DNA of 64,000 bases from Elusimicrobiota bacterium. GTDB taxonomy: Bacteria; Elusimicrobiota; Elusimicrobia; UBA1565. Shown here piece by piece: positions 40,127 to 64,000 of the stretch. Below the pieces are notes generated by a model that worked only from the letters and a program-made list of their open reading frames with translations, did no database searches and was not told the origin of the DNA. The stretch is taken from the NCBI GenBank assembly GCA_043819795.1, contig JBDREN010000049.1, positions 2,379 to 66,378 on the forward strand. Direction: 5' to 3'. Positions within the stretch are counted from its first letter, which is position 1. Each line of letters begins with the position of its first letter. The position numbers and the translations under genes were made by a program.

Positions 40127-40461
40127 CCAGCCGCCCGGAGCCAGACGGAGCCCCAGGCGCTCCGGGTGATGCCTCAGGTGCCTGCTCAGGTACTTGCTTA
40201 TCTTGACGAGGCGTGAGCTGCGCAGAGACTACCTCTTCTTGTGTCCGCAGTCCGACCGGCCGGCCTCGCCGTCGCATTCGTTGTCCGAGCCGTCGCAGGC
40301 TTCGGCGGACGGCGCCACGGGAAATTGTACATTGTCCGGAGCGCGGGGCTCAAGGCCGCCGGGAGGGGCCGCCGGGAGGGGCGCTCAAGGTGGCGGGTGG
40401 TTTGCGGGCCCGGCATTTTCTGGTATAGTTTCAAGTATACACCCCGTTTCTGGAGGCGGAT

Positions 40462-47177: not shown

Positions 47178-47220
47178 CCGCACGGCTGGGGATAGATCGG
47201 GAAAGTCCCCAGCCGTGCGG
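47178..47220. other. Perfect 15-bp stem hairpin (CCGCACGGCTGGGGA / TCCCCAGCCGTGCGG, 13-nt loop)
   Basis: Arms at 47178-47192 and 47206-47220 are exact reverse complements, followed by TGCTTTG. Possible weak terminator of the SBP transcript or a structured RNA element. Confidence 0.6.
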
Positions 47221-47470: not shown

Positions 47471-47771
47471 GTGTAGTGAACCATAAATCCCTTGACATTC
47501 GGGCGATCGATTTCGGCCTCCGGCTAGGCGCGGGGAGCGCGCATGCCCGCAGGTATGTAAGCGACGAGCAACGACGCCGGAAGCCAAAAGCGCCCGCCCC
47601 CTCCTCCTTGACGCGGACAGCGGCGAAATTCTATGGAAAGGGGAGGCCCGATCCCGGCCGATTCCCACGTTGCTCCTCGGTTGCATAGCTTAAGCCATGC
47701 GCCCTCATCGCGCCTCGAAATCGACTCGGGCTCGGGCCTCCAAATGACAAGGGATTTATGATTCACTACAC
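47471..47771. mobile_element. MITE-like non-autonomous element (~300 bp) bounded by 29-bp terminal inverted repeats
   Basis: GTGTAGTGAACCATAAATCCCTTGACATT (47471-47499) versus the reverse complement of 47743-47771 (GTGTAGTGAATCATAAATCCCTTGTCATT) matches at 27/29. Imperfect complementarity continues inward (CGATCGATTTCGG / CGAAATCGACTCG). No ORF inside. Confidence 0.45.
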
Positions 47772-47941
47772 TAGCGATGGCCACTTACTGATTCGGATGG
47801 GGCAAATCCTTTCTATAGCGCAGTATTGTTAAATATGAAACATGTGGCGCTGCTAAACGTTGCAAAAGAGAAACTAGAAGCAGTTTGGAGGCATTCTGAA
47901 CTGGTCAAAAAGAACGAAAAAAACGCAACTATTGGTGGCTA

Positions 47942-47970
47942 TTGCAAAATGGAACGATATCTGCTATAAT
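47942..47970 (+). promoter_or_regulatory. Promoter of the PAS/AAA+ regulator gene (sigma-70 TTGCAA-17-TATAAT, overlapping a sigma-54-like GG-N10-GC element)
   Basis: TTGCAA 47942-47947, 17-nt spacer, TATAAT 47965-47970 with TG at 47962-47963. Also TGGAACGATATCTGCT (47950-47965). RBS GGGAG lies 7 nt before ATG 48011. Confidence 0.5.
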
Positions 47971-48010
47971 AGAACCATAGCATACGTTTCCAGCCGCCGG
48001 GAGTTGATAT

Positions 48011-49369
48011 ATGCAGTTTGAAGGCCAAGGTCGTTTTTTCGAGACCATCCTCCGTTGTGTCGCTGACGGCGTGTTCACGGTGGACCGCGACTGGCGTATC
48101 ACCTCCTTCAATAAGGCGGCCGAGCGCATCACGGGCATGAGCGCCCGGCAGGCCATGGGCAAGAGATGCTCCGAAGTCTTTCACGCGGACCTCTGCGGTG
48201 ACGGCTGCGCCATCAGGCGGGCTCTCGAGACCAAACGCGAGGTCATCGAGCAGCCGGCCAATATCCGCGACCAGCGCGGCAGGGCGATCCCGATAAGCAT
48301 CAGCGCGGCCGTGCTTCGGGGGGAGGACGGGACCGTCCTCGGCGGGGTCGAGACGTTCCGCGACCTGTCGGCCATCGAGCAGCTCAGGCGCGAGATCCGG
48401 AGCCAGTACACCTTCGAGGAGATCGTCGGCAAGAGCGAGGCTTTCCAGAAGGTGTTCTCCATCCTGCCGGACGTCGCCGCCAGCGAGAGCACGGTCCTCA
48501 TCGAAGGCCCGAGCGGCTCCGGCAAACAGCTCCTGGCGCGGACCATACACAACCTGAGCCCCCGCCGGGATCGGCCTTACGTCGTGGCGAACTGCGGGAT
48601 GATGCCGTCCGGCCGCTGCGCGTCCGAGCTTTTCGGCCACGTGCGAGGCGCCTTCAAGGACGCCAAGGGGGACCGGCTCGGCCGCATCGCGCAGGCCGAA
48701 GGGGGGACCATCTTCCTGGACGAGATCGGCGACCTGTCGATGGAGAGCCAGGTCAGGCTCCTCAAGGTCCTTCGGGACGGAGAATACGAGCCGCTGGGCG
48801 GCGTCAGTCCCCGGCGCGCCGATGTGCGCGTGGTCGCTGCCACGAGCAAGAGCCTGCCGGATCTGGTCGGGCGGGGGCTTTTCCGCGACGATCTCTACTT
48901 CCGCCTGGCGGTGGTGCGGCTGAGCATACCGCCCCTGTCCGAGCGGCGCGAGGACATCCCCTGCCTGGTCGAGCACTTCGTCCAGCGCTTCAACGCCAAG
49001 CGCGGCAAGAGCATCCAGGGGGTGACGCCCGCGGCCATGGAGCTTCTCATGCGCCATGGTTTTCCCGGGAACGTGCGCGAGCTGGAGAACCTGATCGAAT
49101 GCGGCTTCGCTCTATGCCACGGCGGATGGATGGACGTCGGCCATCTGCCCGAGGATCTGAGGCCGTCGCGGCGGCCGGGCGCCGCCGGGCGCCGCCTCGA
49201 GGGCGCGTCCCTGCTCCGGCACATCGAGGCGGACGCGGTCCGCGCCTCCTTGGGGCGGAACGCGGGCCATCTCGGCCGCACGGCCGAGGAGCTGGGCATC
49301 AGCCGGACCACGTTGTGGCGCAAGATGAACAAGTACGCCATCGAAGCGGACGAGTTCCGGGCCGGTTGA
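48011..49369 (+). CDS. PAS-domain AAA+ enhancer-binding-protein-type transcriptional regulator (NtrC family, no receiver domain; GAFTGA replaced by GAFKDA)
   Basis: N-terminal PAS (ILRCVADGVFTVDRDWRITSFNKAAERITG), Walker A GPSGSGKQ, ELFGHVRGAFKDA, GGTIFLDEIGDL, RVVAAT, FRDDLYFRL, GNVRELEN, C-terminal Fis-type HTH GISRTTLWRKMNKY. Confidence 0.9.
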   Translation: MQFEGQGRFFETILRCVADGVFTVDRDWRITSFNKAAERITGMSARQAMGKRCSEVFHADLCGDGCAIRRALETKREVIEQPANIRDQRGRAIPISISAAVLRGEDGTVLGGVETFRDLSAIEQLRREIRSQYTFEEIVGKSEAFQKVFSILPDVAASESTVLIEGPSGSGKQLLARTIHNLSPRRDRPYVVANCGMMPSGRCASELFGHVRGAFKDAKGDRLGRIAQAEGGTIFLDEIGDLSMESQVRLLKVLRDGEYEPLGGVSPRRADVRVVAATSKSLPDLVGRGLFRDDLYFRLAVVRLSIPPLSERREDIPCLVEHFVQRFNAKRGKSIQGVTPAAMELLMRHGFPGNVRELENLIECGFALCHGGWMDVGHLPEDLRPSRRPGAAGRRLEGASLLRHIEADAVRASLGRNAGHLGRTAEELGISRTTLWRKMNKYAIEADEFRAG

Positions 49370-49388: not shown

Positions 49389-50762
49389 GTGAGCACCCAA
49401 AGGAAATACAGCTACTTCGTCGAGCCCAAGGCGCTCGAGGTCGCGGAGCGTCCGCGAAAATTCCTCATGGCATTCGCGGCCGTGCTGAAGAACGCCAGCT
49501 ACGGGCTGGCGCTCGATACGTACGCGCGCCTGAGCACCAAATGCGGGCGTTGCGTGGCCTCCTGTCAGCTCTATCAGACCACGCGCGAGGAGCGGGACAT
49601 CCCCTGCCATCGCTCCGAGCTCCTGCTGCGGGTGTACCGGCGGTACTTCACGCATTCGGGCCGCCTCAAGGCCAAGATATTCAGCGGTTTCGAGTTGACG
49701 GACGCCTACTTGGACGAGATGGGCGAGGCCTACTACCGCTGCACCGCCTGCCGGCGGTGCAAGGCCACCTGCCCCATGGGCATCGACCACGCCCTGGTCA
49801 CTCATCTGGCCCGGTGGCTGCTCTCGGAGATCGACGTCATCCCCAAGGCGCTGTTGGTGGCGACGCGCGAGCAGCTCGAGGGCGTCGGCAATACCTCGGC
49901 CATCCCGGTCCCCGCGCTCAAGGACACCTGCGAGTTTCTGGAGGAGGAGCTCAAGGAGATCACCGGCGTGGACATCAAGTTCCCCATGGATGTCGAGGGC
50001 GCCGAGTACGTCTTCTTCCCGGCGGTCTCGGACTATCTGCTCGAGGCGGACACCCTCATGGGCAACGCGGCCGTCATGCACGTCACCGGCGGGTCGTGGA
50101 CCATCGGCACGGGCAACTACGACGGCATCAACTACGGCCTGTTCTACAGCGATCGCATGATGGAGCGGATCGTCAACAACGTCGTCAAGGAGGTCCGCCG
50201 CCTCAAGGGGAGGAAGGTCCTCGTCGGCGAATGCGGCCACGCCACTCGCAGCGCCTGGTACGTGCCGGCCTTCGGCGGCCCGGACGCGCCGCCGGTGGTC
50301 AATTGCTTGCAGTACGCCCACCGGATGCTCGAGGCCGGGAAGCTCCCCCTGAAGAAAGAGCTTATCAAGGAGCGGGTCACCTATCACGATCCGTGCAATA
50401 TCGCCAGGAGCGGGCGGATCACCGAGGAGCCTCGGGAGCTCCTTAAGGCTATCTGCGGGGACTTCGTGGAGATGACGCCGAACCGCGCGGAGAACTACTG
50501 CTGCGGCGGAGGCGGCGGCACGGTCTCCATCGACGAGATCCGGGCTTTCCGCACGGGTCTCATGGGAAAGCGCAAGGCGGATCAGATCCGCGCGACCGGC
50601 GCCAAATACGTCGTGTCGCCCTGCGCCAACTGCAAGAAACAGCTCCGCGAGGTCTGCGAGGACAACGGCCTCAACGAGGTCGAGGTCGTGGGCCTGCACG
50701 ACCTGCTGCTGAAGGCGATCGACTTCGGGGTCCCCGAGAAGAAAGGAGAGGACGATGGGTGA
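49389..50762 (+). CDS. HdrD/DsrK/HmcF-like iron-sulfur protein (2x 4Fe-4S + CCG domain), cytoplasmic
   Basis: CGRCVASCQLY and CTACRRCKATCPMGIDH ferredoxin motifs. CCG-domain signatures YHDPCNIARS and NYCCGGGGG. Confidence 0.85.
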   Translation: MSTQRKYSYFVEPKALEVAERPRKFLMAFAAVLKNASYGLALDTYARLSTKCGRCVASCQLYQTTREERDIPCHRSELLLRVYRRYFTHSGRLKAKIFSGFELTDAYLDEMGEAYYRCTACRRCKATCPMGIDHALVTHLARWLLSEIDVIPKALLVATREQLEGVGNTSAIPVPALKDTCEFLEEELKEITGVDIKFPMDVEGAEYVFFPAVSDYLLEADTLMGNAAVMHVTGGSWTIGTGNYDGINYGLFYSDRMMERIVNNVVKEVRRLKGRKVLVGECGHATRSAWYVPAFGGPDAPPVVNCLQYAHRMLEAGKLPLKKELIKERVTYHDPCNIARSGRITEEPRELLKAICGDFVEMTPNRAENYCCGGGGGTVSIDEIRAFRTGLMGKRKADQIRATGAKYVVSPCANCKKQLREVCEDNGLNEVEVVGLHDLLLKAIDFGVPEKKGEDDG

Positions 50763-51465
50763 GCTAGAGATCTGGACCGAGTGGGCGCGCGGGCCGCTGT
50801 TCAGGGCCGCGCTGGCGTTCATGATCCTGGGCCTTCTGCGTCACGCGGCGTTGACCATATGGGAGCTGGCGGGGATCATGTACCGCGCCGGCGACAAGGC
50901 CTTCCCGTGGAGGCGGGCATTCTCCGCCACGCTAAAATGGCTTTTCCCGGTGGGGCAGATCAAGAACCGTGTCCTCTACAGCCTGACCACGCTCGGCTTC
51001 CATGCCGCCGTCATCATCGTTCCCGTTTTTCTCGCGGGCCACGTCGCGCTCTGGGAGCGGGGCACGGGCCTGTGCTGGCCGACCATCCCCAACGGCGTGG
51101 CGGACGTGCTGACGATCATGGCCGTGCTCGCGGCGGCCTTGCTCGTGGCGGAGCGCGCGGCCGCGCGGGACTCCCGGGCGCTGAGCCGCTTCCAGGACTA
51201 CGCCTTGCCCCTGCTCGTGGCCGCGCCCTTCGCGACCGGCTTCCTGGTCATGCATCCGGCTTTAAACCCGTTCGGCCATGAAGCGACGATTCTGGTCCAC
51301 GTGTTGAGCGCGGATATTCTGTTCATCCTCATCCCGCTGACCAAGCTGAGCCACATGATCCTGCTCCCGGGCACGCAGATCATCTCCGAGCTGTCCTGGC
51401 ATTTCCCGCCGGACGCCGGCAGGAAAGTGGGCGTCGATCTCGGGAAGGAGAAGCAACCCATATGA
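50755..51465 (+). CDS. NarI/DsrM/HmcE-like membrane cytochrome b subunit
   Basis: 8-nt overlap with the upstream gene. About 5 TM helices with conserved His (LLRHAAL, GFHAAVIIVP, GHVALWE, HVLSADILF, KLSHMILLP). Confidence 0.7.
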   Translation: MGELEIWTEWARGPLFRAALAFMILGLLRHAALTIWELAGIMYRAGDKAFPWRRAFSATLKWLFPVGQIKNRVLYSLTTLGFHAAVIIVPVFLAGHVALWERGTGLCWPTIPNGVADVLTIMAVLAAALLVAERAAARDSRALSRFQDYALPLLVAAPFATGFLVMHPALNPFGHEATILVHVLSADILFILIPLTKLSHMILLPGTQIISELSWHFPPDAGRKVGVDLGKEKQPI

Positions 51466-52595
51466 AGAAGCCCGTCGCCATCCTTACGGACACGACGCTC
51501 TGCACCGGCTGCGAGGAATGCGTCGCGGCGTGCAAGAAGGAGAACGGCCTGGGCGAGGATCGCCGGTGGCGCTGGCAAAGCTCCGTGAGCGAGCTTTCCG
51601 CGTCGCGCTTCACCGCAATCATCCGTCGGCCCGGCAACCGCTACGTCCGCCAGCAGTGCCGGCACTGCGTGGACCCGGCGTGCGTGAGCGCCTGCATCGT
51701 GGGCGCGCTGCGGAAGACGGAAGAAGGCGCGGTGGTCTACGACCAGGATAAGTGCATCGGCTGCCGTTACTGCATGCTGGCCTGCCCCTACGGGATCCCG
51801 CGCTACGATTGGGAGAAGCCGATCCCGTACATCAGGAAGTGCACGCTCTGCTATGACAGGCTTGAGGAGGGAAAGGCCCCCGCCTGCGTGGAGGCCTGCC
51901 CCGAGAAGGCGACGATATTCGGCTCCCGCTCCGATATGCTGGCCGAGGCCCATCGGCGCCTGAAACGGCATCCCGGGAAGTACGTCCAGAAGGTCTACGG
52001 GGAACGCGAGGTGGGGGGGACGTCGGTCCTCTACATCTCGGACATACCCCTTGATTTCCTCGGCTGGCAGACCGATCCCGGCGAGCGGCCGCTGCCGGAC
52101 CTCACGTGGGCCGCCCAAAGGAAGATCCCGGCCGCGGCTCTGGGGGTGTTCGGGCTCATGGGCGGCACCTACTGGGTCATCGGCCGGAGGATGCAGGCCG
52201 CGGCGCGGGCGGGCCTGAAAGACGCGCCCCGGGAAGGGGACGCCCCGTCCGTGGGGCACGGGCATCCGGAGCAGGGAGGGGCCCTCTCCGGCCTGAAGAC
52301 GGCCCTGTGGATGCCTCTCGGCGTGGTGGCGGCCGTGACCATCGTGCGTTTCGCGCGGAATCTGGACGCGGCCGCGAGCCTCGGGGACGGAGCCCTCTGG
52401 ACCCTGTGGCTCGCCCTCGGCGTGGCGGGAGGCACCGGTCTCGGGGCGGGGATCCATTGGCTCGCCGCCCGCCGCAAGAAGGCGCCGGAGGAGGACGCGG
52501 AGCCCGAGGAAGGAACTCCCACCCCGCCCGTCCAGGCGTCGAAGACTTCCGTTCCCAAGCAGATCGCGGGCGACGGCGGCCCGAAGGAGCGATAG
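51462..52595 (+). CDS. Four-cluster 4Fe-4S ferredoxin subunit (HybA/HmcB/DsrO/NrfC-like) with C-terminal TM helices and no signal peptide
   Basis: ATGA overlap. CTGCEECVAAC, CRHCVDPACVSAC, CIGCRYCMLACP, CTLCYDR..CVEACP. The first Cys is residue 14 (MKKPVAILTDTTLC). Three hydrophobic segments lie after residue ~215. Confidence 0.85.
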   Translation: MKKPVAILTDTTLCTGCEECVAACKKENGLGEDRRWRWQSSVSELSASRFTAIIRRPGNRYVRQQCRHCVDPACVSACIVGALRKTEEGAVVYDQDKCIGCRYCMLACPYGIPRYDWEKPIPYIRKCTLCYDRLEEGKAPACVEACPEKATIFGSRSDMLAEAHRRLKRHPGKYVQKVYGEREVGGTSVLYISDIPLDFLGWQTDPGERPLPDLTWAAQRKIPAAALGVFGLMGGTYWVIGRRMQAAARAGLKDAPREGDAPSVGHGHPEQGGALSGLKTALWMPLGVVAAVTIVRFARNLDAAASLGDGALWTLWLALGVAGGTGLGAGIHWLAARRKKAPEEDAEPEEGTPTPPVQASKTSVPKQIAGDGGPKER

Positions 52596-52599
52596 GGCG

Positions 52600-54561
52600 A
52601 TGATGCCTCTGAGAAGAATCAAGAGCCTGCTCTGGTTCGTCCTGGGCGCGGGCATGGTGACCATCGCCGCGCGGCTGCTCACCGGGCTCGGCGCGGTCAC
52701 CAACCTGTCCCACAACGTTTCCTGGGGCCTGTGGAACGCGGTCAAGATCAGCATCGTGCCCCTCTCGGCCGGAGGGTTCGTTTTGGCTGCGATCGTCTAC
52801 GTCTTCCATATGGAGAGGTTCCGTCCCGTGCTCCGTTTGGCCATCCTTACGGGGTTTTTGGGCTACTCGACCTTCGCCACGATGCTCATGTTCGATATCG
52901 GGGTGCCCTACCGGATATGGCATCCCATGGTCTACTGGCAGCACCATTCCGTGCTCTTCGAAGTGGCGTGGTGCGTGATGCTGTATCTGACCGTGCTGGC
53001 CCTCGAGTTCTTGCCCAACGTGCTGGAGCATCCTCTGCTGAAGCACCCCCTGCTCCAGAAGGGATACAAGCTCCTGAAGAGCGCGACCGTACCCCTGGTG
53101 ACCGCGGGGATCGTGCTGTCCACGCTGCACCAGTCGTCGTTGGGCTCGCTGTTTTTGATCGTCCCCCACCGTCTCGATCCCTTATGGTACAGCCCGCTGA
53201 TACACGCGCTCTTCCTGGTCTCCGCCGTCGGGATGGGGCTTCTGGTGATCGCCGTGGAGGCGGTCCTGATCGAGCGTCTCTACGGCGTCAAGGCGCCGCT
53301 GGACGTCCTCGCCCCTTTGGCCCGCGCGGGCGCGGTGGTGATGGCCCTCTTCTTGGCCGTCAGGCTGGCCGACCAGGTCGCTCGCGGGGTGCTCCCGGGT
53401 GCTCTGAGCACATCTCCGATGGCGGCGGCATTCGTCCTTGAGACTCTGATCGCCTCGATCGTGCCGCTGCTGCTTCTGCGCAGGAGCGTCCGCGAGAGCC
53501 GCGGGGGCCTGTTCGCCTGCTCTCTTTCCGCGGTGCTGGGAGTCGTCTGGTACAGGTCGAACGTCGCCTTGCTGGCCATCGACTGGGGCGAGGCGGCCTA
53601 TTTCCCGGCGTGGACCGAGTTCGCCCTGTGCTTCGGCATACTGGCCGGGTCGGGCTTGGTGTTCTTCTTGCTGCTGGAGAACCTGGACATTTATTACGGG
53701 CCGGCCGCATCCGGCCGTGACCGCGAGCCGCAGGTGCCGGGGTTGGCGTTCGAGGCTTGGCTGGCGGACGCGAGGATCACCGCGGCCAGGCGCTATTCCC
53801 TGTTCATCGTGGCGGGCGCGGCGGCGGCCGTCTTGTTTCTCCCCGAGGGCACGGTGTTCGGAGCCAGGCCCGCGGACACGCCGGCGGCGCAGGCCCGGCG
53901 GGTCCGGGGCTTGTCGGTCCGGACCGGCGGCGGACGCGTCAGCACGCTGCGCCTCGGCGAGAGGCCGGTCCCCGCTAAGGGCCGAGTGAAGCGCCTGCCG
54001 CTTTACCTGATTGACGGCGACCGCGATGAGGACGCGGTCCTCTTCGATCACGCGGGCCATGTCAAGCGGGCGGGCGGCGAGAAGCGCTGCGGGGTGTGCC
54101 ATCACCTGAACATGCCGCTCGACGAGAACACCTCCTGCCATGAATGTCATCGCGACATGTACGAGCCCGCCTCCGTGTTCAGCCACGCATCGCATGTGCG
54201 CGAACTCGGGGGGAACGCGGGCTGCGTCAAGTGCCATGAGGATCCTCTCGTGGTGAAGGACCGCCGGACGGCCGTCGCTTGCGGGGAATGCCACTCCGAT
54301 TCGGCGGCAAAGGGCTCCTTCGTCGAGGCGCCGGGGCCGAGGTGGGGGGCCGCGCCGGGCTACGCGGACGCGATGCACGGCCTCTGCGAGAGTTGTCATA
54401 AGAAGAAGGCGAAAGAAGAGCCGGGCCGTTATCCCGCGGCGCTGGGGCGTTGCGCCGCCTGCCACGATACGGACCGCCCCATGGATATCCGTCGGATGGC
54501 GCCGCGAAGTGATAGAATGCGGGCCATGCGCGCCGAGGAACGCGGGCTCTCGGGCGGCTGA
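52600..54561 (+). CDS. NrfD/DsrP/HmcC-like quinone-interacting membrane subunit fused to a C-terminal hexahaem cytochrome c domain
   Basis: NrfD hallmark GLGAVTNLSHNVSWGLWNAVKISIV plus multiple TM helices, then an extra TM (RRYSLFIVAGAAAAVLFL). Six CxxCH motifs lie between 54088 and 54465 (CGVCH, CHECH, CVKCH, CGECH, CESCH, CAACH). Confidence 0.85.
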   Translation: MMPLRRIKSLLWFVLGAGMVTIAARLLTGLGAVTNLSHNVSWGLWNAVKISIVPLSAGGFVLAAIVYVFHMERFRPVLRLAILTGFLGYSTFATMLMFDIGVPYRIWHPMVYWQHHSVLFEVAWCVMLYLTVLALEFLPNVLEHPLLKHPLLQKGYKLLKSATVPLVTAGIVLSTLHQSSLGSLFLIVPHRLDPLWYSPLIHALFLVSAVGMGLLVIAVEAVLIERLYGVKAPLDVLAPLARAGAVVMALFLAVRLADQVARGVLPGALSTSPMAAAFVLETLIASIVPLLLLRRSVRESRGGLFACSLSAVLGVVWYRSNVALLAIDWGEAAYFPAWTEFALCFGILAGSGLVFFLLLENLDIYYGPAASGRDREPQVPGLAFEAWLADARITAARRYSLFIVAGAAAAVLFLPEGTVFGARPADTPAAQARRVRGLSVRTGGGRVSTLRLGERPVPAKGRVKRLPLYLIDGDRDEDAVLFDHAGHVKRAGGEKRCGVCHHLNMPLDENTSCHECHRDMYEPASVFSHASHVRELGGNAGCVKCHEDPLVVKDRRTAVACGECHSDSAAKGSFVEAPGPRWGAAPGYADAMHGLCESCHKKKAKEEPGRYPAALGRCAACHDTDRPMDIRRMAPRSDRMRAMRAEERGLSGG

Positions 54562-54565
54562 AACC

Positions 54566-55681
54566 ATGGCCCCCAAAGAGATAGAAAGCTGGCTTCGATC
54601 GAGCCTCTTTAACGAGGTCCCGGTGAGCATCTGCGTGATCGACCGGGGTTTCCGGATCATCGAGGCGAACCGGAGGTTCAGGGAGGAATACGGCCCCTGG
54701 AAGGACCGGGCGTGCCACGAGGTCTGCAAGGGTCTGGAGGAGCCCTGCGAGCGTTGCGGCGCGGTCAAGACCTTCTCGGACGGGCGCGTGCGCAACCGGG
54801 AGGAGACGGGAGCGGGCGGGAAGCACTACCTGGTGCACATGGTCCCCATCACCACCGACGGCGGGGATATCTCCTACGTCATCGAGACGTTCACGGATAT
54901 CACGCAGGTGAAGCAGCTGGAGGGCGAGAAGCGCGAAGCCGAGCGTCTGGCCGCCGTCGGCGAGACCGTGGCCGGCATCGCCCACGGCATGAAGAACGTG
55001 CTTACCGGGCTCGAAGGCGGCGTCTATGCCGTCAATACGGGCATCCAGCATGGCGACGACGAGAGGATCACCGAAGGCTGGGCCATGCTCGAGGAGAATA
55101 TCGCGCGCATCTCGGAGTTTGTCAAGGAGTTCCTGGCTTTCTCCAAGGGGCGCATCGCGCGGGTGGCCTTCGTGGACCCCAACGCCCCGGCGCGGGCGGT
55201 CTTTGAGCTCTTCCGGGAGAAGGCCGCGCAGGCGGGCATCGAGCTGAAGGCGGACCTGCAAGAGGGGATTCCTCCCGCGCCCCTGGACGAGCAGGGGATC
55301 CACGCCTGCCTGGCCAACCTCGTATCGAACGCCCTGGACGCCTGCTCCATGGGCGAGCAGCGGCGCGCGTGCGTGGTGACGATTCGCTCCCGGGAGCGCA
55401 GCGGGACGCTAGTGTACGAGGTTGCGGACAACGGCCGCGGGATGGACTACGAGATCAGTAGGAAAGTGTTTTCGAGGTTCTTCAGCACGAAGGGCTCGGA
55501 CCGGGGCACGGGTCTGGGGCTGCTCACCACTAAGAAGACCATCCACCAGCACGGCGGCCGGGTCTCGTTCAGCTCCGAGGAGAGCAGGGGCTCGGTGTTC
55601 CGCATCGAGCTTCCCCGGGAAAGACTGCCCAAGCCGGGCGGGAAGCCCGCCCAACGACAGGCCGCGGAAGGAGACGCCTGA
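54566..55681 (+). CDS. Cytoplasmic PAS sensor histidine kinase
   Basis: ATG 54566 (MAPKEIESWL..). PAS with a four-Cys cluster, H-box LAAVGETVAGIAHGMKNVL, N/G boxes LVSNALDA, DNGRGM, GTGLGL. Confidence 0.85.
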   Translation: MAPKEIESWLRSSLFNEVPVSICVIDRGFRIIEANRRFREEYGPWKDRACHEVCKGLEEPCERCGAVKTFSDGRVRNREETGAGGKHYLVHMVPITTDGGDISYVIETFTDITQVKQLEGEKREAERLAAVGETVAGIAHGMKNVLTGLEGGVYAVNTGIQHGDDERITEGWAMLEENIARISEFVKEFLAFSKGRIARVAFVDPNAPARAVFELFREKAAQAGIELKADLQEGIPPAPLDEQGIHACLANLVSNALDACSMGEQRRACVVTIRSRERSGTLVYEVADNGRGMDYEISRKVFSRFFSTKGSDRGTGLGLLTTKKTIHQHGGRVSFSSEESRGSVFRIELPRERLPKPGGKPAQRQAAEGDA

Positions 55682-56229
55682 TGGACAAAGAGAACGCCAA
55701 AGGACGCGCCGAGGATAAGACCGTACTCGTGGTCGATGACGAGCCGAACGTGCGCCGCCACCTGGCCCACATCCTAGAGGACGCCGGCTTCAAGGTCCTT
55801 ACGGCCTCCGATGGGGATGAGGCCCTGAAGACCATCCGGGAGCGGCGCCCGGACATCATCTCGCTCGACCTGGTCATGCCGCGCAAGAGCGGGCGCCGGC
55901 TGCTCTACGAGCTGAAGAAGGATAAGGAGCTCTCCCGCATCCCGGTGGTCATCGTCACCGCGCACGCCCAGGACGAGCTGGGCCAGAGCGACATGGAAGC
56001 CATCAGGGAGAGCATGATCATATCGGGCCCGGGCTTCTATCTGGAGAAGCCGGTTAGGCCCATGGACTACGTGCGCTGCATCCAGGAAGCCCTGGGCATC
56101 GAAGTGGCGGATCAAGCCGCGGACAAAGTCAGCCTCAAGGACGAGCTGAAGCGGCAGATGCAGGGGGCGGAGCCGCACGCGCTGCGCCGCGCCCTCGAGG
56201 CGTTGAGAAAGAAAGGCCCGCCGCGCTAG
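55681..56229 (+). CDS. Response regulator, receiver domain with short C-terminal extension (no recognised output domain)
   Basis: TGATG overlap with the kinase gene. VLVVDDEPNVR..DIISLDLVMPRKSG..VVIVTAH..LEKP. Confidence 0.85.
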   Translation: MDKENAKGRAEDKTVLVVDDEPNVRRHLAHILEDAGFKVLTASDGDEALKTIRERRPDIISLDLVMPRKSGRRLLYELKKDKELSRIPVVIVTAHAQDELGQSDMEAIRESMIISGPGFYLEKPVRPMDYVRCIQEALGIEVADQAADKVSLKDELKRQMQGAEPHALRRALEALRKKGPPR

Positions 56230-56248
56230 AGGGCCGAGGAGACCTGCG

Positions 56249-56602
56249 ATGGCGAAGAAGATCCTGATCGTCGAAGACGAGCCGCACGTCGTGAAGTATC
56301 TCGAGATGTTCCTCCACGACGCGGGCTTCCAGACGGTATCCGCGAGCGACGGTCAGACGGGTCTGGAGCTGGCCAAGCGCGAGAAGCCGGACCTGGTGAT
56401 CCTGGACCTTATGATGCCGAAGAAGACGGGGACGGACTTCTACCGGAAGCTCTCCAGGGACAAGGAGCTCGGCGATACCCCCGTCATCGTGGTCAGCGGT
56501 CTGGCCGGCCGAGATCTCGTCGTCAGGAAGCCTGCGGCGGTGTTCGACAAGCCCCCGGACCGCGAGGGGCTCATCGCCGCCATCAAGAAAGCCCTCCCGT
56601 AG
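56249..56602 (+). CDS. Single-domain response regulator (receiver only)
   Basis: KILIVEDEPHV..DLVILDLMMPKKTG..VIVVSG..FDKP. Confidence 0.85.
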   Translation: MAKKILIVEDEPHVVKYLEMFLHDAGFQTVSASDGQTGLELAKREKPDLVILDLMMPKKTGTDFYRKLSRDKELGDTPVIVVSGLAGRDLVVRKPAAVFDKPPDREGLIAAIKKALP

Positions 56603-56651: not shown

Positions 56652-56676
56652 CGGCAGGAACGTTGCGTGCTATAAT
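56652..56676 (+). promoter_or_regulatory. Promoter of the hydrogenase operon: sigma-54-like -24/-12 (GG-N10-GC) overlapping an extended -10 TGCTATAAT
   Basis: CGGCAGGAACGTTGCG (56652-56667) and AGGAACGTTGCGTGCT (56656-56671) both fit GG-N10-GC. TGCTATAAT at 56668-56676. 33 nt upstream of ATG 56709. Confidence 0.45.
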
Positions 56677-56708
56677 CCTGTGAGAACGCGGCGCCGGGGG
56701 GAAGTCCG

Positions 56709-57752
56709 ATGCTGTACAAGGTGATCACGAAGGCCGAGTTTCGGAAGTTCGTCGACGGCCTGATCCAGGACAACCAGACTATAGGCCCCAAGCGGGTCGC
56801 CACGGACGCGAAAGGCAAGCCCGTCTACCAGTTTGTCGAGGTCCGCTCCTTCGACGAGTTGGACCTCGACTACACGATCACCTACTCCTCGGTGAAGAAT
56901 TTCTTCCACCCCTTCCGCGAGGAGCTGTCTCGTTTCAAGCTGAAAGATGACGATTGGGAGCAGGAGATCGAATACCGCGTCAATCCGAGGGTCATCATCG
57001 GCGTGCGGCCGTGCGACATCAACGCCTTGGCGATCCTGGACAAGGTGTTCTTGAGCGGGAGATTCCCCTCGCCGTACTACATCGCCCGGCGCCGGAACAC
57101 CTTCCTGATCGGAATGGACCATCTGCCCCTGGATGACTGCTTCTGCGAGTCCCTGAACCGGCACGCCCCGCGCGAGGGGTTCAACCTCTACTGCTCGGAC
57201 ATCGGGGACAGATACTATCTCTCGATCCTTTCCTCAAAGGCCTTCAGCTTCCTCAAGAACGTGAGGACGAGCGAGCCCTCCAAGGCGGACAACAAAAGAT
57301 ACATCGAGAGAAGAAAGCTCATCAAACGGAGCTTCAAGACCAAGGTGGAGGTCTCGGGCCTGCCGAGCTTCCTGGACATCGAGTTCAAGTCCCCGATATG
57401 GGATAAATGGGGGGACAAGTGCCTGAACTGCGGGACATGCGCCATGGTCTGCCCCACGTGCTACTGCTACGGGGTGGAGCAGTCCGTGGACGTGGACCTG
57501 AAGACCGCCCGCAAGGAGCGCATGCTGTACTCCTGCAACGTCGTGGATTTCGCGGAGGTGGCCGGAGGGCACAACTTCAGGCCGAAGAAGGCGGACAGGC
57601 TGAAGTACCGGTTCTATCACCATTACAGGGGTTTCGAGGAGAACGCCGACGAGCAGATCTGCGTTGGCTGCAACCGGTGCGGCAGGGCCTGCCTGGCGGG
57701 GATCAACCCGAAGGACGTGATCAACGACTTGAGGCTGGAGACCGGAGAATGA
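56709..57752 (+). CDS. [NiFe] hydrogenase group 3b-type beta subunit (AsrA/HydB-like Fe-S protein)
   Basis: [37 protein letters not shown]. First gene of the beta-gamma-delta-alpha order known from sulfhydrogenases. Confidence 0.8.
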
Positions 57753-58663
57753 AGGCGGGATTCAAAATACCCAGGCAGGACATCAATCTCGAGCCGTTCA
57801 TGACGGCGCCTCCCCAGTTCAACCGCAAGACCATCGTCATGCGCACGGACAAGGTCTACAAGTGCGAGCTCATCAACATCGTCGAGCTGACCTCCATGGA
57901 GAAGCTCTTCCATCTCAAGATCATCGACCCCCGCGAGAGGAAGCTGTTCTCCTTCCGGCCGGGACAGTTCGTGATGGTCCAGGTGCCCGGCTCCGGGGAG
58001 GTCCCGGTCTCCATATCGAGCTCGAGCAACAACCGGGAGTTCCTGGAGCTGTGCGTCCGCAGGGCGGGGCGCACCACCGGCATGCTGCACCGGGCCCGGA
58101 TCGGCGCGAAGGTGGGGATCCGCGGGCCCTTCGGCTCGTCTTTCCCCATGGAGGAGATGGCTGGCCACAACGTCCTGCTGATCGCCGGAGGGCTCGGCCT
58201 GGCCCCCCTGCGCGCCCCCATCTGCTGGGTCAACGAGCGCCGGGACCAGTACGGCGACGTCCACATCCTCTACGGCGCCAAAGAGCCTTCCCAGATGCTC
58301 TTCACGTACGAATTCAAGGAATGGGAACGGGTGAACCACATCAATCTGCTGACCATCGTCGAGAAGGCGGACAAGGCCTGGAAGGGCGGGACGGGCCTCA
58401 TCACCGAGCTCTTCAGGGATTTCTCCATCAAGCCGCTCGACACCTACGCGATCGTGTGCGGGCCGCCCGTCATGTTCAAGTTCGTGTGCGGGCATCTGGA
58501 CTCCATCGGGGTTCCCATGAACCGCATGTTCGTCTCCCTGGAGCGGCGGATGCACTGCGGCATGGGCAAGTGCTGCCGGTGCATGGTGGGCTCGACGTTC
58601 ACCTGCGTGGAAGGCCCCGTGTTCGACTACTGGAGCGTCATGAATTTGAAGGAGGCGATTTGA
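57749..58663 (+). CDS. [NiFe] hydrogenase group 3b-type gamma subunit (FAD/NAD(P)-binding, 2Fe-2S; AsrB/HydG-like)
   Basis: ATGA overlap (57749-57752). [36 protein letters not shown]-terminal [10 protein letters not shown] cluster. Confidence 0.85.
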
Positions 58664-59415
58664 GATACCTCGGCATCGAGCTCAAGAAGCCCAGGATCGC
58701 CGTCTTCGACTTCACCTGCTGCGAGGGCTGCGAGCTGCAGCTGGCGAACAAGGAGGAGACCCTGGTCGATTTCCTCTCCCTTGTCGAGGTCGTGAACTTC
58801 CGGGAGGTGTCCTCGGACAAGAGCGAGGACTACGAGATCGCCTTCGTGGAGGGGGCGGTCTCGAGGGAGGATGAGGTCGCTCGCCTGAAGAAGATCAGGG
58901 TGAACGCGAAGGTCCTCGTGGCTTTCGGCGCCTGCGCCTGCTTCGGCGGCGTGAACCAGATCAAGAACAAGTTCCCGCTCAAGTCGGTCGTCCGAGAGGT
59001 GTACGGCAGGCACCGCGTGGCCACGTCCAAGGTGCGGAAGATCAGCGAAGTGGTCAAAGTGGATCTCGAGATCCCGGGCTGTCCGGTCTCCAAGAAAGAG
59101 GTGGAAAGGATCGTCGTCGCTCTGGTCACGGGCGCGGGCATCAGCCTGCCGAAGTACCCCGTCTGCCTCGAGTGCAAGGCGAAGTGCAACGTCTGCGTCC
59201 TGGACCTCGGGCAGATCTGCCTGGGTCCGATCACGCGCGCGGGCTGCGATTCGCCCTGCCCATCCGGGGGGACCGCGTGCCTGGGCTGCAGGGGGCCGGC
59301 GCCCGAGGCCAATTACGAGTCGTTCCTGCGGATATTGAAAGACCGGGGCTTCAAGGCCCCGGAGATCAAGGAGAGGCTCGAGTTCTACGGCGCCTTCAAC
59401 GGGGTCATGAGATGA
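58660..59415 (+). CDS. [NiFe] hydrogenase small (delta) subunit, group 3 type
   Basis: TTG 58660 overlaps the gamma stop, with GAAGGAGG upstream. [28 protein letters not shown], and distal cluster cysteines [12 protein letters not shown]. Confidence 0.85.
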
Positions 59416-60686
59416 AGCGCGCCAGGGAGATCACCGTACGCCATGTGACCCGGGTCGAGGGCCACGGCGACATCCATATCAAGGTGAAAGACGGCCGGCT
59501 CGTGGATGCGCGGTGGGCCGTGGTGGAGACCCCGCGTTTCTTCGAGGCCATGCTCAAGGGCATGTCCCATGATCTGGCGCCCATACTGACGGCCAGGATC
59601 TGCGGCATCTGCTCCATAGGCCACTGCCTGGCGAGCCTGAGGGCGGTGGAGAGGGCCATGGACGTCAAGGTCCCGGAGACCGCGCGGCTGTTGCGCCTGC
59701 TCGCCAAGCACGGCGAGACCCTTCAGAGCCACGCGCTCCACGTGTTCTTCCTGTCCGCGCCCGATCTCTTCAAGGTGGGGAGCGTCATCCCCCTGATCAA
59801 GTCCCATCCCGAGGTCGTCGGCATCGCGGCCAGGCTCAAGAAGCTGGGAAACGACGCTTGCGACCTGATCGCGGGGCGGACCACGCACCCGGTGAGCCTG
59901 GTGGTGGGCGGGCTCAGCAGGCTGCCCACGGACAAGCAGATCGAGGAGCTGAGGGGCGCGTTCCTTGCGAGGCTGCCGGACATGCGCGCGGCCGTCGACC
60001 TCTTCAAGACGCTTCCCATGCCGGACTTCCAGCGGGAGACGGAGTTCGTGTCATTGAAGGGCCAGGGGGACTATCCCTGGATCGGGGGGGATCTCGTGTC
60101 GTCCGACGGCGTCCGCAGGCCGGAGGACGGCTACCTGGCCATGACGAACGAATACAAAGTGGAGTTCAGCACCTCGAAGTTCGCCAAGCTGAGTAGGGAG
60201 TCCTTCGCGGTCGGCGCCCTGGCGAGGTTCAACAACAATCACAAGCATCTGCGGCCGGAGGCGAAGGGAGCCGCCAAGGCGCTGGGCTTGAGTCCCCTGA
60301 GCCACAACCCTTTCATGAACAACGTGGCCCAGCTCGTGGAATGCTATCACGTGATGCTGGAGTCCATCGAGTTGCTGGACGGGCTTCTGGGCCGCCGGGG
60401 AAAGACCGCGTCCCGTCCTTATAAAGTGAAGGCCGGCCGGGGCGTCGCCGCCGTGGAGGTGCCCCGGGGCATCCTCTACCACGAATACGAGCTCGACAAG
60501 AAGGGCAAGGTCGTCAGGGCGAACTGCGTCATCCCCACCACGCAGAACCACGCCAACATCCACCACGATCTCCGGGCGCTCGCCGCGCGGCTGGTGCGGG
60601 AAGGCAAAAGCGACGGGGAGATCACTTTGCTGAGCGAGATGCTGGTCCGGTCCTACGACCCCTGCATCTCCTGCTCCGTCCACTAG
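59412..60686 (+). CDS. [NiFe] hydrogenase large (alpha) subunit, group 3b type, ending at the C-terminal His
   Basis: ATGA overlap. VTRVEGHG, L1 motif [11 protein letters not shown]-terminal DPCISCSVH followed directly by TAG (60684-60686). Confidence 0.9.
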
Positions 60687-61756: not shown

Positions 61757-62272
61757 ATGGTAGACCCTGCAAAGGCTTTTACCGAACCTGTGATTGCGAT
61801 CGGGACGCTGGCTGAGAAGAGCGGCCTTTCCGTATCCGCGATCCGGAAGTACGAGGCGGAGGGCCTGCTCATTCCCTTTCGGACGCCTTCCGGCCATCGC
61901 CTGTTTTCTCACGAGGACATGGACCGGGTGAAGATCATCCGCCACATGATCCAGGAGCTGGGCCTGAACATCGAGGGCATCAGGAGGCTGCAGGCGCTGC
62001 TTCCGTGCTGGGAGCTGGTCCGGTGCTCGGAGGATAAGCGAAGCGAGTGCCCGGCCTACAAAGACAACTCCAAGCCGTGCTGGATGGTCCGGGGAGGGGA
62101 CTGCAGCGCGCGCGGGAACGAATGCCGCAGCTGCGCGGTGTACCGGTTCGGCTCGCAGTGCACCGAGGACATCAAGCGCGTGGTGCACAACCGGGCGGCT
62201 CCGGAGGAGCTGAGCGAGGAAGTGCGGAAGGCTTTGAACAGGCTGGAACAACCTGAGAAGGGGGATAGATGA
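61757..62272 (+). CDS. MerR family transcriptional regulator with C-terminal cysteine-rich (2x PCW) domain
   Basis: MerR HTH IGTLAEKSGLSVSAIRKYEAEGLL..RTPSGHRLFS, then LLPCWELVRCSEDKRSECPAYKDNSKPCWMVRGGDCSARGNECRSCAVYRFGSQC. Confidence 0.85.
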   Translation: MVDPAKAFTEPVIAIGTLAEKSGLSVSAIRKYEAEGLLIPFRTPSGHRLFSHEDMDRVKIIRHMIQELGLNIEGIRRLQALLPCWELVRCSEDKRSECPAYKDNSKPCWMVRGGDCSARGNECRSCAVYRFGSQCTEDIKRVVHNRAAPEELSEEVRKALNRLEQPEKGDR

Positions 62273-63156
62273 TAGTCATACTCACCTATGTCGCGTTGAT
62301 CGTGTTCGGGGCGGGATTCCTTTATAGAGGCTTAAGCATCGCGATGATGCCGGTGCATCTGCGATGGGAGCTCGCGCCCGTGCCGCACGAAAAAGGAAGA
62401 GCCCATTACGGGGGGTCTTACCTGGAGGAGTTCGAGTGGTGGACCAAGCCCAGGGAGAAGTCGCTTGTGGGCGAAGCCTTCTACATGTTCCAGGAGATCG
62501 TCTTCCTCAAGGGAGTCTGGGAGCACAACCGCTCTTTGTGGGTGTTCTCCTTCCCGTTCCATTTCGGTTTGTACCTGCTCGTCGGCATGGGGGGGTGCCT
62601 CATCCTGGCGTCTTTCGGCGTCCCATTCTTCGGCCCGGCGGCTTTGGCCCTCGGAGGAGCGGGCTACGTGCTGGGCAGCGTCGGGACCTTGGGGCTCCTT
62701 GCCAGGCGCGCCTTCGACCCCAAGCTCAAGCCCTTCACCAGCATGGCGTCGTATTTCAACCTCCTGTTCCTGGCGGCGGTGTTCGTGACCGGCTGCGTCG
62801 CGTTGTTCTCGGGGGGCTTTCTGGCGGACATGACCTCCTACCTCAAGGCCGTCGCCTTCGCCGAGGCGGGGCCGGCGCTGGGCGCCGCGATCTCGACGCA
62901 CATCGCCGTGGGGATGCTCTTCCTCGTCTACCTGCCGTTCACCTACATGATGCATTTCGTGGCCAAGTACTTCACCTACCACGAAGTGCGGTGGAACGGC
63001 GAGCCCATGTCGGGCAATGACGCCATGCAGGAAGAGGTCAAGAAGCTGCTCGGGCAGACCGTGACGTGGTCCGCTCCACACATCGGCGCCGACGGCAAGA
63101 AGAACTGGGTCGATATCGCCACCGCGGGGACAGCCAAGGAGAAAAAAGATGCCTAA
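62269..63156 (+). CDS. DsrM/HmeC/NarI-like membrane cytochrome b subunit
   Basis: ATGA overlap with the MerR gene. MPVHLRWELAPVPHEKG, FQEIVFLKGVWEHNRSLWVFSFPFHFGLYLL, YMMHFVAKYFTYH. Confidence 0.75.
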   Translation: MIVILTYVALIVFGAGFLYRGLSIAMMPVHLRWELAPVPHEKGRAHYGGSYLEEFEWWTKPREKSLVGEAFYMFQEIVFLKGVWEHNRSLWVFSFPFHFGLYLLVGMGGCLILASFGVPFFGPAALALGGAGYVLGSVGTLGLLARRAFDPKLKPFTSMASYFNLLFLAAVFVTGCVALFSGGFLADMTSYLKAVAFAEAGPALGAAISTHIAVGMLFLVYLPFTYMMHFVAKYFTYHEVRWNGEPMSGNDAMQEEVKKLLGQTVTWSAPHIGADGKKNWVDIATAGTAKEKKDA

Positions 63157-64000
63157 GCCCCTGAGAGTCGAGGATTTCGGGAAGAACGAAGGGCAGCAGC
63201 TGACCAGCGTCGACATGAGCGACCTGGTCCCCCTGCCGCCCCCTTACGACAAGATCGAGGAGCAGCCGGTATGGAAGGAGATCAAGCCGGAGGCGAAGGA
63301 GAAGATGGCCTGCAACCTCGACGGGGTGGTCGCCTGCAGCCTGCCCAAGCCCAAGGACGCCGCCGAGGAGCAGGAGATCGTCGACAAGTTCGTCTCGGGC
63401 CTTAGGAAAATCCTGACGAAAGAGAACAATTGGACCTTCCTCCAGCCGCTTATGCTGTCTTTGGAGTACTGCGCCAAGTGCCAGACCTGCAACGACGCCT
63501 GCCCGGTCTACGAATTCAGCGGCAAGAACGACCTCTACCGGCCCACTTACCGTTCCGAGGTGTGGCGGCGCCTGGTCAACAAGTACGTCAAGTCCGGCCC
63601 CAAGTGGCTGGCGAAGTTCAAGCACGGGGATATCGACCTTAACTGGACGACGGTCTCGAGGCTCTACGAGCTTGCCTACCGCTGCACCTTGTGCCGCCGC
63701 TGCGCGCAGGCCTGCCCCATGGGAGTCGACAACGGGCTCATCACCCACGAGCTGCGCAAGATCTTCAGCCAGGAGCTGGGCTGGGCCCCGAAGGAGCTCC
63801 ATGAGAAGGGCACCGTGCTGCAGCTCGATGTCGGCTCCTCGACGGGCATGAGCCCCCTGGTGGTCAAGGACAACATCGAGTTCGTGGACGAGGACTTCTC
63901 CGAGGAGTCCGGCCTGGACGCCAAGACTCCGTGGGACAAGGAGGGCGCGGAGGTCCTGCTCATCCATAACGCGGGCGAGATCATGACCTGGCCGGAGAAC
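63149..64000 (+). CDS. DsrK/HdrD/HmeD-like iron-sulfur protein, 3' end beyond window
   Basis: Not in the ORF track because no stop is reached. I translated it by hand: ATG 63149 after AAGGAG, open to nt 64000. EYCAKCQTCNDACPVY and YRCTLCRRCAQACPMGVDN. Confidence 0.8.
   Translation, partial: MPKPLRVEDFGKNEGQQLTSVDMSDLVPLPPPYDKIEEQPVWKEIKPEAKEKMACNLDGVVACSLPKPKDAAEEQEIVDKFVSGLRKILTKENNWTFLQPLMLSLEYCAKCQTCNDACPVYEFSGKNDLYRPTYRSEVWRRLVNKYVKSGPKWLAKFKHGDIDLNWTTVSRLYELAYRCTLCRRCAQACPMGVDNGLITHELRKIFSQELGWAPKELHEKGTVLQLDVGSSTGMSPLVVKDNIEFVDEDFSEESGLDAKTPWDKEGAEVLLIHNAGEIMTWPEN

Follow-up and report, generated by a model that had tools for sequence, protein, structure and literature searches.

Genes for sigma-54 enhancer-binding proteins are known to be autoregulated from sigma-70 promoters that are overlapped by the protein's own binding sites, pspF being one example. 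Some relatives of these proteins act at sigma-70-type promoters: VpsR of Vibrio cholerae is a sigma-54-independent relative, HupR controls a hydrogenase operon and TyrR acts through promoter-overlapping boxes, some strong and some weak. TyrR, DhaR and the HupR protein of Rhodobacter capsulatus are sigma-70-dependent homologues with defective GAFTGA motifs (PMC3162934), and changes at the F or the T of GAFTGA mostly abolish activation (Francke et al., PMC3162934). Another arrangement is found at glmY, where the -24/-12 element of a sigma-54 promoter and the -10 box of a sigma-70 promoter are superimposed and use the same start nucleotide, and where a comparison of related species gives an evolutionary series with sigma-54-only, overlapping and sigma-70-only promoters (PMC3045617). 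Here we describe two promoters from a 64,000 nucleotide stretch of DNA (the window; contig JBDREN010000049.1, positions 2,379 to 66,378) of a metagenome-assembled genome (MAG) deposited as Elusimicrobiota. They have a 20 nt motif in common and are located upstream of a gene for a PAS/AAA+/helix-turn-helix (HTH) regulator (site 1) and of a [NiFe] hydrogenase operon (site 2). Our preferred, if tentative, explanation is that both are sigma-70 promoters of the extended -10 type which may be controlled directly by this regulator, itself probably uncoupled from sigma-54, and that the two operons would form one regulon. Read in this way, the element illustrates rewired regulation and does not represent a novel type.

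Site 1 (GGAACGATATCTGCTATAAT, 47951-47970) and site 2 (GGAACGTTGCGTGCTATAAT, 56657-56676) are both encoded on the plus strand, and position and spacing are exactly as given in an earlier note on this DNA. Site 1 is composed of GGAACG, ATATC and the extended -10 sequence TGCTATAAT; site 2, read together with the preceding A (56656-56676), is composed of AGGAACG, TTGCG and again TGCTATAAT. Of the 20 positions, 16 are the same in both sequences, and not 15 as counted before: all 15 specified positions match, as does one T in the 5 nt spacer. A search of both strands of the window for GGAACG-N5-TGCTATAAT with up to two mismatches returned sites 1 and 2 only, while 0.02 matches are expected from shuffled sequences and two matches were obtained in 0 of 100 shuffles. 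The motif is thus not frequent at random places in the window and represents a non-random promoter element common to both operons. The hexamer TATAAT occurs twice in 128 kb (both strands of the window), at sites 1 and 2. The gene contexts proposed in the note were also borne out: site 1 is located 40 nt upstream of the ATG of the regulator gene (48011), and site 2 is located 32 nt upstream of the ATG that opens the hydrogenase operon (56709). Transcription start sites (TSS) are predicted at approximately 47976-47977 and 56682-56683, and the sigma-54 and sigma-70 readings of the motif agree on them within 1 nt.

Two simple explanations of the motif were rejected. Site 2 is not a recent duplicate of site 1, because the flanks are without similarity (equal scores were reached by 863 of 1000 shuffles for the upstream and by 71 of 1000 shuffles for the downstream flank); the likeness is therefore one at the motif level. 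A promoter of the extracytoplasmic function (ECF) type, with GGAAC as -35 and a spacer of 16-17 nt, would require -10 sequences (GAACC and CTGTG) that have nothing in common. It also fails on spacing, since GGAAC is just 9 nt away from TATAAT.

The extended -10 reading of both sites is strong. TGCTATAAT is a perfect extended -10 of the TGnTATAAT-like type at site 1 as well as at site 2, and the TTGCAA reported as a -35 element 17 nt before the TATAAT of site 1 is present at 47942-47947. This -35 matches at four of six positions, and site 1 together with it has the top sigma-70-like score in the region from 45 to 64 kb; at the corresponding position of site 2 the sequence is GCCCCG, which is no match. 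A -35 is optional in promoters of this class. Promoters of the same kind precede unrelated genes, with TGCTAGACT at 761 (37 nt before the ATG at 807) and TGGTATAGT at 40421 (32 nt before the ATG at 40462). Altogether, TGnTAnnnT has 12 matches in the window, four of which are in promoter positions (761, 40421, 47962, and 56668), and extended -10 boxes recur 32-40 nt before start codons. The distances at sites 1 and 2 are sensible ones for promoters of genes with a Shine-Dalgarno sequence. Judged by these genes, the TGCTATAAT type is the ordinary promoter architecture of the organism. Three of the four promoter-placed boxes read TGCTA, which accounts for the "GC" that the note had assigned to a sigma-54 -12. 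By the same comparison GGAACG is the sole part that is special to sites 1 and 2.

Site 1 has a palindrome (TGCTAT-N9-ATAGCA, 47962-47982) across its -10 and predicted TSS, for which there is no counterpart at site 2. Its minus strand, TGCTATGGT, is a mirror-image extended -10-like box that faces the non-coding stretch upstream of site 1.

If the extended -10 is common property, both sites could be plain constitutive sigma-70 promoters in which GGAACG has no function today, being left over from a former sigma-54 promoter in the case of site 1 and either copied or coincidental in the case of site 2. This would agree with the usual promoter type of the organism and with the loci L012 and L023 of metagenomic relatives, where a drifting upstream half precedes a preserved TGCTA[G/A]AAT; the deletion and the decay of the regulator L1 loop described below would likewise fit a loss of regulation. 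We consider this explanation quite unlikely. GGAACG is present in 53 copies in 128 kb (both strands), so that the chance of finding it at the fixed offset is about 4e-4, and all six of its bases are kept while flanks and spacer are fully diverged, which argues for selection. In addition, the PAS domain, the HTH and the ATPase core of the regulator are conserved and arrays of binding sites are enriched, as detailed below.

The earlier note had further read each site as a sigma-54 -24/-12 element. The GG-N10-GC spacing is indeed exact, with GG at 47951-52 and GC at 47963-64 for site 1 and GG at 56657-58 and GC at 56669-70 for site 2, but the match to the consensus is at chance level. Compared to TGGCACG-N4-TTGCW, site 1 has two and site 2 three mismatches; seven sites with up to two mismatches were found in the window and 6.3 are expected, which corresponds to background. 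A family-specific matrix built from 17 promoters of orthologous cassettes gives 13.1-20.6 bits for these training promoters, 8.6 bits for site 1 (rank 20) and -1.5 bits for site 2 (rank 878). The top match to this matrix, TTGGCCTTCAAACTGCATA, is located over the regulator start codon on the minus strand (48010-48028, 15.4 bits) and is probably due to chance, because the second-best match (14.6 bits) is found inside a coding region. The sigma-54 reading is not supported in the form given in the note: the spacing stood, but the TGC belongs to the extended -10, GGAACG equals the regulator's own box and the regulator has lost the GAFTGA threonine (see below). GG-N10-GC would be a by-product of this combination, as TGGAACG resembles the -24 sequence TGGCACG.

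We give hardly any weight to the possibility that the sites are sigma-54-only promoters in which TATAAT is merely the AT-rich melting region. Such promoters would make use of the GG-N10-GC, of the adjoining regulator of the enhancer-binding type and of the upstream box, but the sole two perfect TATAAT hexamers in 128 kb are located at exactly these sites, each one extended by TG, and the sigma-54 scores are poor and the regulator carries GAFKDA. Dual sigma input, which had also been suggested, has its precedent in glmY: sigma-54 would bind GG-N10-GC and sigma-70 would bind TGCTATAAT, with both polymerases competing for the same start. Activation would come from an enhancer-binding protein at the box 115 nt upstream of site 1 or at a site inside hydB for site 2. 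The exact GG-N10-GC at both sites and the single predicted TSS are in line with this, as is the observation that the identical positions are the union of both consensus sequences and the differences fall into the sigma-54 spacer. We nevertheless regard it as unlikely, in view of the chance-level consensus matches, the -1.5 bits of site 2 and several properties of the locus that are described in the following paragraphs.

One of these is the sigma factor itself. The rpoN gene was not found within the 64-kb window, and the only regulator of the sigma-54-activator type encoded there is the GAFKDA protein. Elusimicrobium minutum is without sigma-54 and its activators (PMC3162934), and RpoN is absent from both Elusimicrobia genomes surveyed in 2011 (PMC3372290), which speaks against a dual promoter. 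No literature on rpoN in Elusimicrobia other than the 2011 surveys was found.

The regulator gene (48011-49369, plus strand) codes for a protein identical to MFH1723720.1 with a PAS domain, an AAA+ domain (Sigma54_activat, sigma-54 interaction domain) and a Fis-type HTH. In place of GAFT(D/G)A it contains GAFKDA, K216 being aligned with the T of the ZraR GAFTGA. We surveyed the motif in 83 AAA+/HTH regulator-type sequences (from fetched loci and the window) and in the best 120 protein matches. The other 82 sequences of the first set have T at position 4 of the motif (S in one), and T is found at this position in 118 of the 119 best matches with a recognisable motif, the exception being the window protein. 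GAFKDA is thus unique among approximately 200 homologues, and GAFK variants are not listed in the supplement of Francke et al. The window regulator deviates at 20 columns with a conservation of 95% or more across 98 orthologues, whereas the median of the other sequences is one and the next highest value is 11. The deviations are concentrated in the L1 and L2 loops (11 of 33 conserved columns), compared to the PAS domain (2 of 60) and the HTH (0 of 14; Fisher p = 1.4e-5). On this distribution the DNA-binding and sensory domains are kept under constraint, while the change from GAFTDA to GAFKDA together with other L1 changes suggests that the canonical sigma-54 contact has been lost in this lineage, leaving a regulator that is probably independent of sigma-54. 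The GAFKDA motif also weighs against the dual promoter, although another activator may be encoded outside the window.

The window regulator forms a long branch beside those of L012 and L014. Its closest relative is 72-73% identical, and orthologues (hundreds) with 63-73% identity are found in Gemmatimonadota, Latescibacterota, Planctomycetota and others. Since the best relatives are only 72-73% (regulator) and 79% (HydB) identical, close-range phylogenetic footprinting is impossible. Four cysteines of the PAS domain (residues 16, 53, 62, and 66; LRCVADG...KRCSEVFHADxCxxGC; gene part 48011-48420) are invariant in 15 aligned orthologues, which suggests a metal or iron-sulfur centre as sensor.

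The regulator gene is part of a cassette whose remaining genes (49389-56602, plus strand) begin 19 nt after it, with no promoter gap of their own. They code for a CCG/HdrD-like protein, a 236 amino acid protein without known function, a Fer4_11 protein, an NrfD-cytochrome c fusion, a PAS histidine kinase, and two receiver proteins. We read approximately 30 orthologous loci (loci of metagenomic relatives, given here with L-numbers). Their synteny is strict: the regulator gene is followed by a gap of 140-280 nt, a small Nitro_FeMo-Co-like gene and the genes for CCG, a 233 amino acid protein, Fer4_11, NrfD-cytochrome, kinase, and two receivers. The syntenic cassette is present in several phyla (L012-L029, L057, L094, L096, L097, and L100), the NrfD part being fused to a multihaem cytochrome c, and it resembles membrane redox complexes of the Dsr/Hmc type. 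A canonical -24/-12 promoter, for instance TTGGCTTGCGATTTGCC, is found in all orthologue gaps and is located 43-54 nt upstream of the small gene, whose start is conserved. The window has neither the gap between regulator and operon nor the small gene, it is the only copy seen that lacks this gene, and no tblastn match to it was found elsewhere in the window; the CCG protein begins where its orthologues begin. Compared to these loci, the canonical sigma-54 promoter of the cassette and its enhancer gap are deleted in the window. The deletion implies that the regulator gene and the redox-complex genes would now run from site 1, and the loss of the real sigma-54 promoter of the cassette is a point against the dual promoter.

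The region just upstream of the regulator gene is informative as well. In a sister clade (L016/L018, L017, L020, and L057) it contains GG[A/C]ACGATTC[T/C]TGTAG (L016 9935, L017 5272, L020 1314, L057 8503), while the surrounding DNA cannot be aligned. No -10 hexamer and no regulator boxes are found near this 16-mer, and it reads best as a -24/-12 promoter with TGT as -12. The sister-clade element GGAACGATTCTTGTAG is sigma-54-like and homologous in sequence, which is a point for the dual promoter. The closest relatives, L012 (GGACTGATTGTTGCTAGAAT) and L023 (GTACCGATTGATGCTAAAAT, GG lost), have TGCTA-AAT and 40 nt to the ATG as in the window. L023 contains GT for GG at the homologous position and yet keeps TGCTAAAAT, which is a point against it. 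From L016-type loci through the window and L012 to L023, the promoters look like the glmY/glmZ series from sigma-54-only through overlapping to sigma-70-only. Likeness to glmY further includes the superimposed -24/-12 and -10 elements with one start nucleotide, the enhancer-binding protein encoded nearby and, for site 1, putative sites more than 100 bp upstream. The window differs in that both activities were shown genetically for glmY, whereas here they are predicted from the sequence, and in the weak sigma-54 match, especially of site 2, and the defective GAFTGA.

To define the recognition box of the regulator family independently of sites 1 and 2, the gaps between regulator gene and operon in the orthologous loci were used. 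TGAAAC[A/G] is present in 37 copies in 13 gaps, with two to five copies per gap; the 7-mers in 16 gaps (3.3 kb) are TGAAACG (20), TGAAACA (17), and TGGAACG (6). TGGAAC stands for TGAAAC at homologous positions of near-identical loci (L012 versus L023, L098 versus L097), and a dimer form, GTTYCA-N3/4-TGRAAC, is present in L015, L017, L026, L097, and L100. From these 16 loci the family box is defined as TGRAACR. Because each gap contains boxes as well as a canonical -24/-12 promoter, the family represents a genuine sigma-54 system with TGRAACR as the enhancer box. The box of site 1, TGGAACG, is an exact recurrent variant of it, and AGGAACG at site 2 is a weaker match. Both extended -10 sequences would thus carry one box 5 nt upstream of the TG. 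Of 23 orthologous loci, 10 likewise have a box within 150 nt before the regulator start codon, in most cases at -36 to -73; that of the window is at -61. The same layout of box plus extended -10 is found in L094 (TGGAACGTTTCA-GG-TGCGATATT).

Further putative regulator sites are located upstream of site 1. The most distal one is GTTAAA-TA-TGAAAC (47828-47841, plus strand). It contains a perfect box (TGAAACA, 47836-47842), from which the site 1 GG is 115 nt away, and it matches in position TGAAACAT and TGGAACAT upstream of the L023 and L012 promoters. It is followed by a degenerate dimer site, GTTGCA-AAAG-AGAAAC (47859-47874, plus strand), which is the direct-repeat partner of 47942-47954, and by a degenerate promoter-proximal palindrome, ATTGCA-AAA-TGGAAC (47941-47955, plus strand). 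The halves of this palindrome coincide with the -35 TTGCAA (left) and with the GGAAC of the motif (right); the palindrome would be the proximal member of a three-site array, with the left half-site doubling as -35. Three dimer-like sites in 239 nt (47772-48010) compare to 0.12 expected (P about 0.001). A weak inverted near-box with one mismatch, CGTTTCC (47985-47991, GGAAACG on the minus strand), and TGGAACG flank the region from the -10 to the predicted TSS of site 1. The perfect box at -115 is enhancer-like in its distance and would also suit a dual promoter.

Site 2 is located in the 106 nt gap in front of a hydBGDA-type [NiFe] hydrogenase operon with four subunits (56709-60686, plus strand; hydB 56709-57752, hydG 57749-58663, hydD approximately 58660-59415, hydA 59412-60686). 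No box is found at enhancer distance upstream of it, in contrast to site 1 with its box at -115 and the degenerate sites. One putative dimer site, GTTTCA-AGC-TGAAAG (56932-56946, plus strand), is located inside hydB, 256 nt after site 2 and at about +256 from the predicted TSS. It is the only match to the dimer site with up to one mismatch in 64 kb. It is significant only by its location, because about one such match per 64 kb is expected by chance. At this position the window protein has KLK where 11 of 11 HydB homologues have a conserved x-F-x, thus the dimer site arose from a lineage-specific change at a conserved residue. Promoters of HydB homologues are of the TTGACA-N17-TATATT type in the PVC group and other bacteria, while those in Desulfobacterales are canonical TGGCAC-N5-TTGCT promoters, the latter being in line with a dual promoter. 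No hydrogenase linked to the cassette was found in the approximately 30 orthologous loci. Recent horizontal transfer of the hydrogenase, which its lower GC content had suggested, is not supported, since the GC content at third codon positions (GC3; 0.89 for hydB and 0.90 for hydA) is the same as in the remainder of the window. The claim that regulator gene and hydrogenase operon form one regulon is plausible in the light of the box array upstream of site 1 and of the near-perfect dimer site in hydB.

GGAACG could also be the operator of another factor, such as the output of the cassette's kinase and receivers or a MerR-family protein encoded at 61757. The element is common to both sites at a fixed offset, site 2 is without a second half-site for the adjoining regulator, and the cassette does encode a PAS kinase and two receiver proteins. 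We regard this as very unlikely: no DNA-binding domain was found in the two receiver proteins, the 7-mer TGGAACG is documented in exactly this form among the variants of the adjoining regulator's box, and nothing points to any second factor.

Taken together, we propose that the regulator may bind the boxes at both sites and act directly on sigma-70 promoters, possibly with looping to the strong site inside hydB. As the site 1 box is located between -35 and -10, the simplest mode would be that of an autoregulator or repressor. The redox-complex operon and the hydrogenase operon would thereby be tied into one regulon. Several points weigh against this proposal. The A at box position 1 in site 2 is rare (1 of 55), site 2 is a half-site only without a left half, and 0.56 dimer matches with up to one mismatch are expected by chance in 64 kb. 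The regulator has kept a conserved ATPase core. Site 1 has GGAACGAT in common with the sister-clade sigma-54-like element and may thus descend from a sigma-54 promoter, and the differences between sites 1 and 2 fall exactly into the spacer that is unconstrained by sigma-54. Finally, the absence of rpoN is known from two other genomes, the Elusimicrobia surveyed in 2011, and the assignment of this MAG to Elusimicrobiota is the depositor's label. A more far-reaching version of the proposal is doubtful: a module that is orthodox and driven by sigma-54 in Gemmatimonadota, Latescibacterota, Planctomycetota and other phyla would have been rewired to sigma-70 in a lineage that possibly has no sigma-54. 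The -24/-12 promoter and the enhancer gap would have been lost, the target operon fused to the regulator's promoter, the extended -10 perfected, and the contact loops changed with sensing, ATP binding and DNA binding retained; the hydrogenase operon would have been recruited by means of the box and promoter layout and of a binding site inside the gene.

The proposed circuit resembles TyrR and DhaR of Escherichia coli, HupR/NtrC of R. capsulatus and VpsR of V. cholerae in combining an AAA+ domain and a Fis-type HTH with a defective GAFTGA and sigma-70-type promoters. It differs from the TyrR/HupR class in that the single T-to-K exchange and the nearby L1 changes arose within an orthodox sigma-54-using family and not in an old dedicated lineage, and in that a Cys-rich PAS domain takes the place of a receiver or ACT domain as the input. 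HupR and NtrC exert their effect from far upstream, whereas the window box is located between -35 and -10; the regulation itself is predicted here from the sequence. As in the pspF-type systems, the promoter zone of the regulator gene contains boxes for the gene's own product, in the window as well as in 10 of 23 orthologues, but the window promoter would also drive the whole target operon, and the layout of box plus promoter also heads a second operon. The canonical cassette promoters of other phyla (Y-TGG-YNY...TTGC, before the small gene) have the same gene context and GG-N10-GC in common with the window promoters. They differ in scoring 13-21 bits, following two to five perfect boxes and having no -10 hexamer, compared to 8.6 and -1.5 bits and a perfect TATAAT in the window.

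Additional features were observed around both operons. Site 1 is located at the end of a 1-kb non-coding stretch that is AT-richer than the window (66.7% GC), and no known RNA was found in this stretch. It contains a 301 bp element (47471-47771) 180 nt upstream of site 1, with 32 nt terminal inverted repeats (GTGTAGTGAACCATAAATCCCTTGACATTCGG and CCAAATGACAAGGGATTTATGATTCACTACAC, 91% complementary) and an internal 48 nt inverted repeat (47526-47573 and 47668-47715). This element resembles a miniature inverted-repeat transposable element (MITE); it is present as a single copy in the window and has no Rfam match. A perfect 15 bp inverted repeat (CCGCACGGCTGGGGA and TCCCCAGCCGTGCGG, 47178-47220) with a 13 nt loop, followed by TGCTTTG, is located approximately 170 nt after the gene for a solute-binding protein (end at 47005) and may be its terminator. 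The extended -10 TGGTATAGT of the gene for an M29 peptidase (40421-40433) abuts GTTTCA, a perfect half-box of the regulator, which is without a partner half-site and possibly due to chance. In the hydrogenase operon, a mechanically called open reading frame of 517 amino acids (57862-59415) fuses two genes; GC3 puts hydG and hydD in separate frames, and the hydG start overlaps hydB by ATGA. The region after the hydrogenase (61757-64000) contains a MerR-family gene, a NarI-like (Nitrate_red_gam) gene and then a Fer4 gene. MerR and NarI-like genes also adjoin the regulator orthologue in L097 (1-1436), and L098 (2-1299) contains MerR and an uncharacterised gene cut by the contig end. This recurrence beside the regulator hints at a wider conserved neighbourhood.

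For annotation, the locus shows that GG-N10-GC beside a gene for a "sigma-54-interacting regulator" does not suffice for calling the promoter sigma-54-dependent: a -24 element can be mimicked by the box of the regulator itself (TGGAACG), and the GAFTGA status should be looked at as well. If our explanation is true, the window would represent a natural case of a sigma-54 enhancer circuit converting to sigma-70 control in an uncultured lineage, with intermediates that can be traced in related metagenomic loci. A membrane redox complex of the Dsr/Hmc-like type would then share one regulon with a cytoplasmic [NiFe] hydrogenase, with the Cys-rich PAS domain as the sensor.

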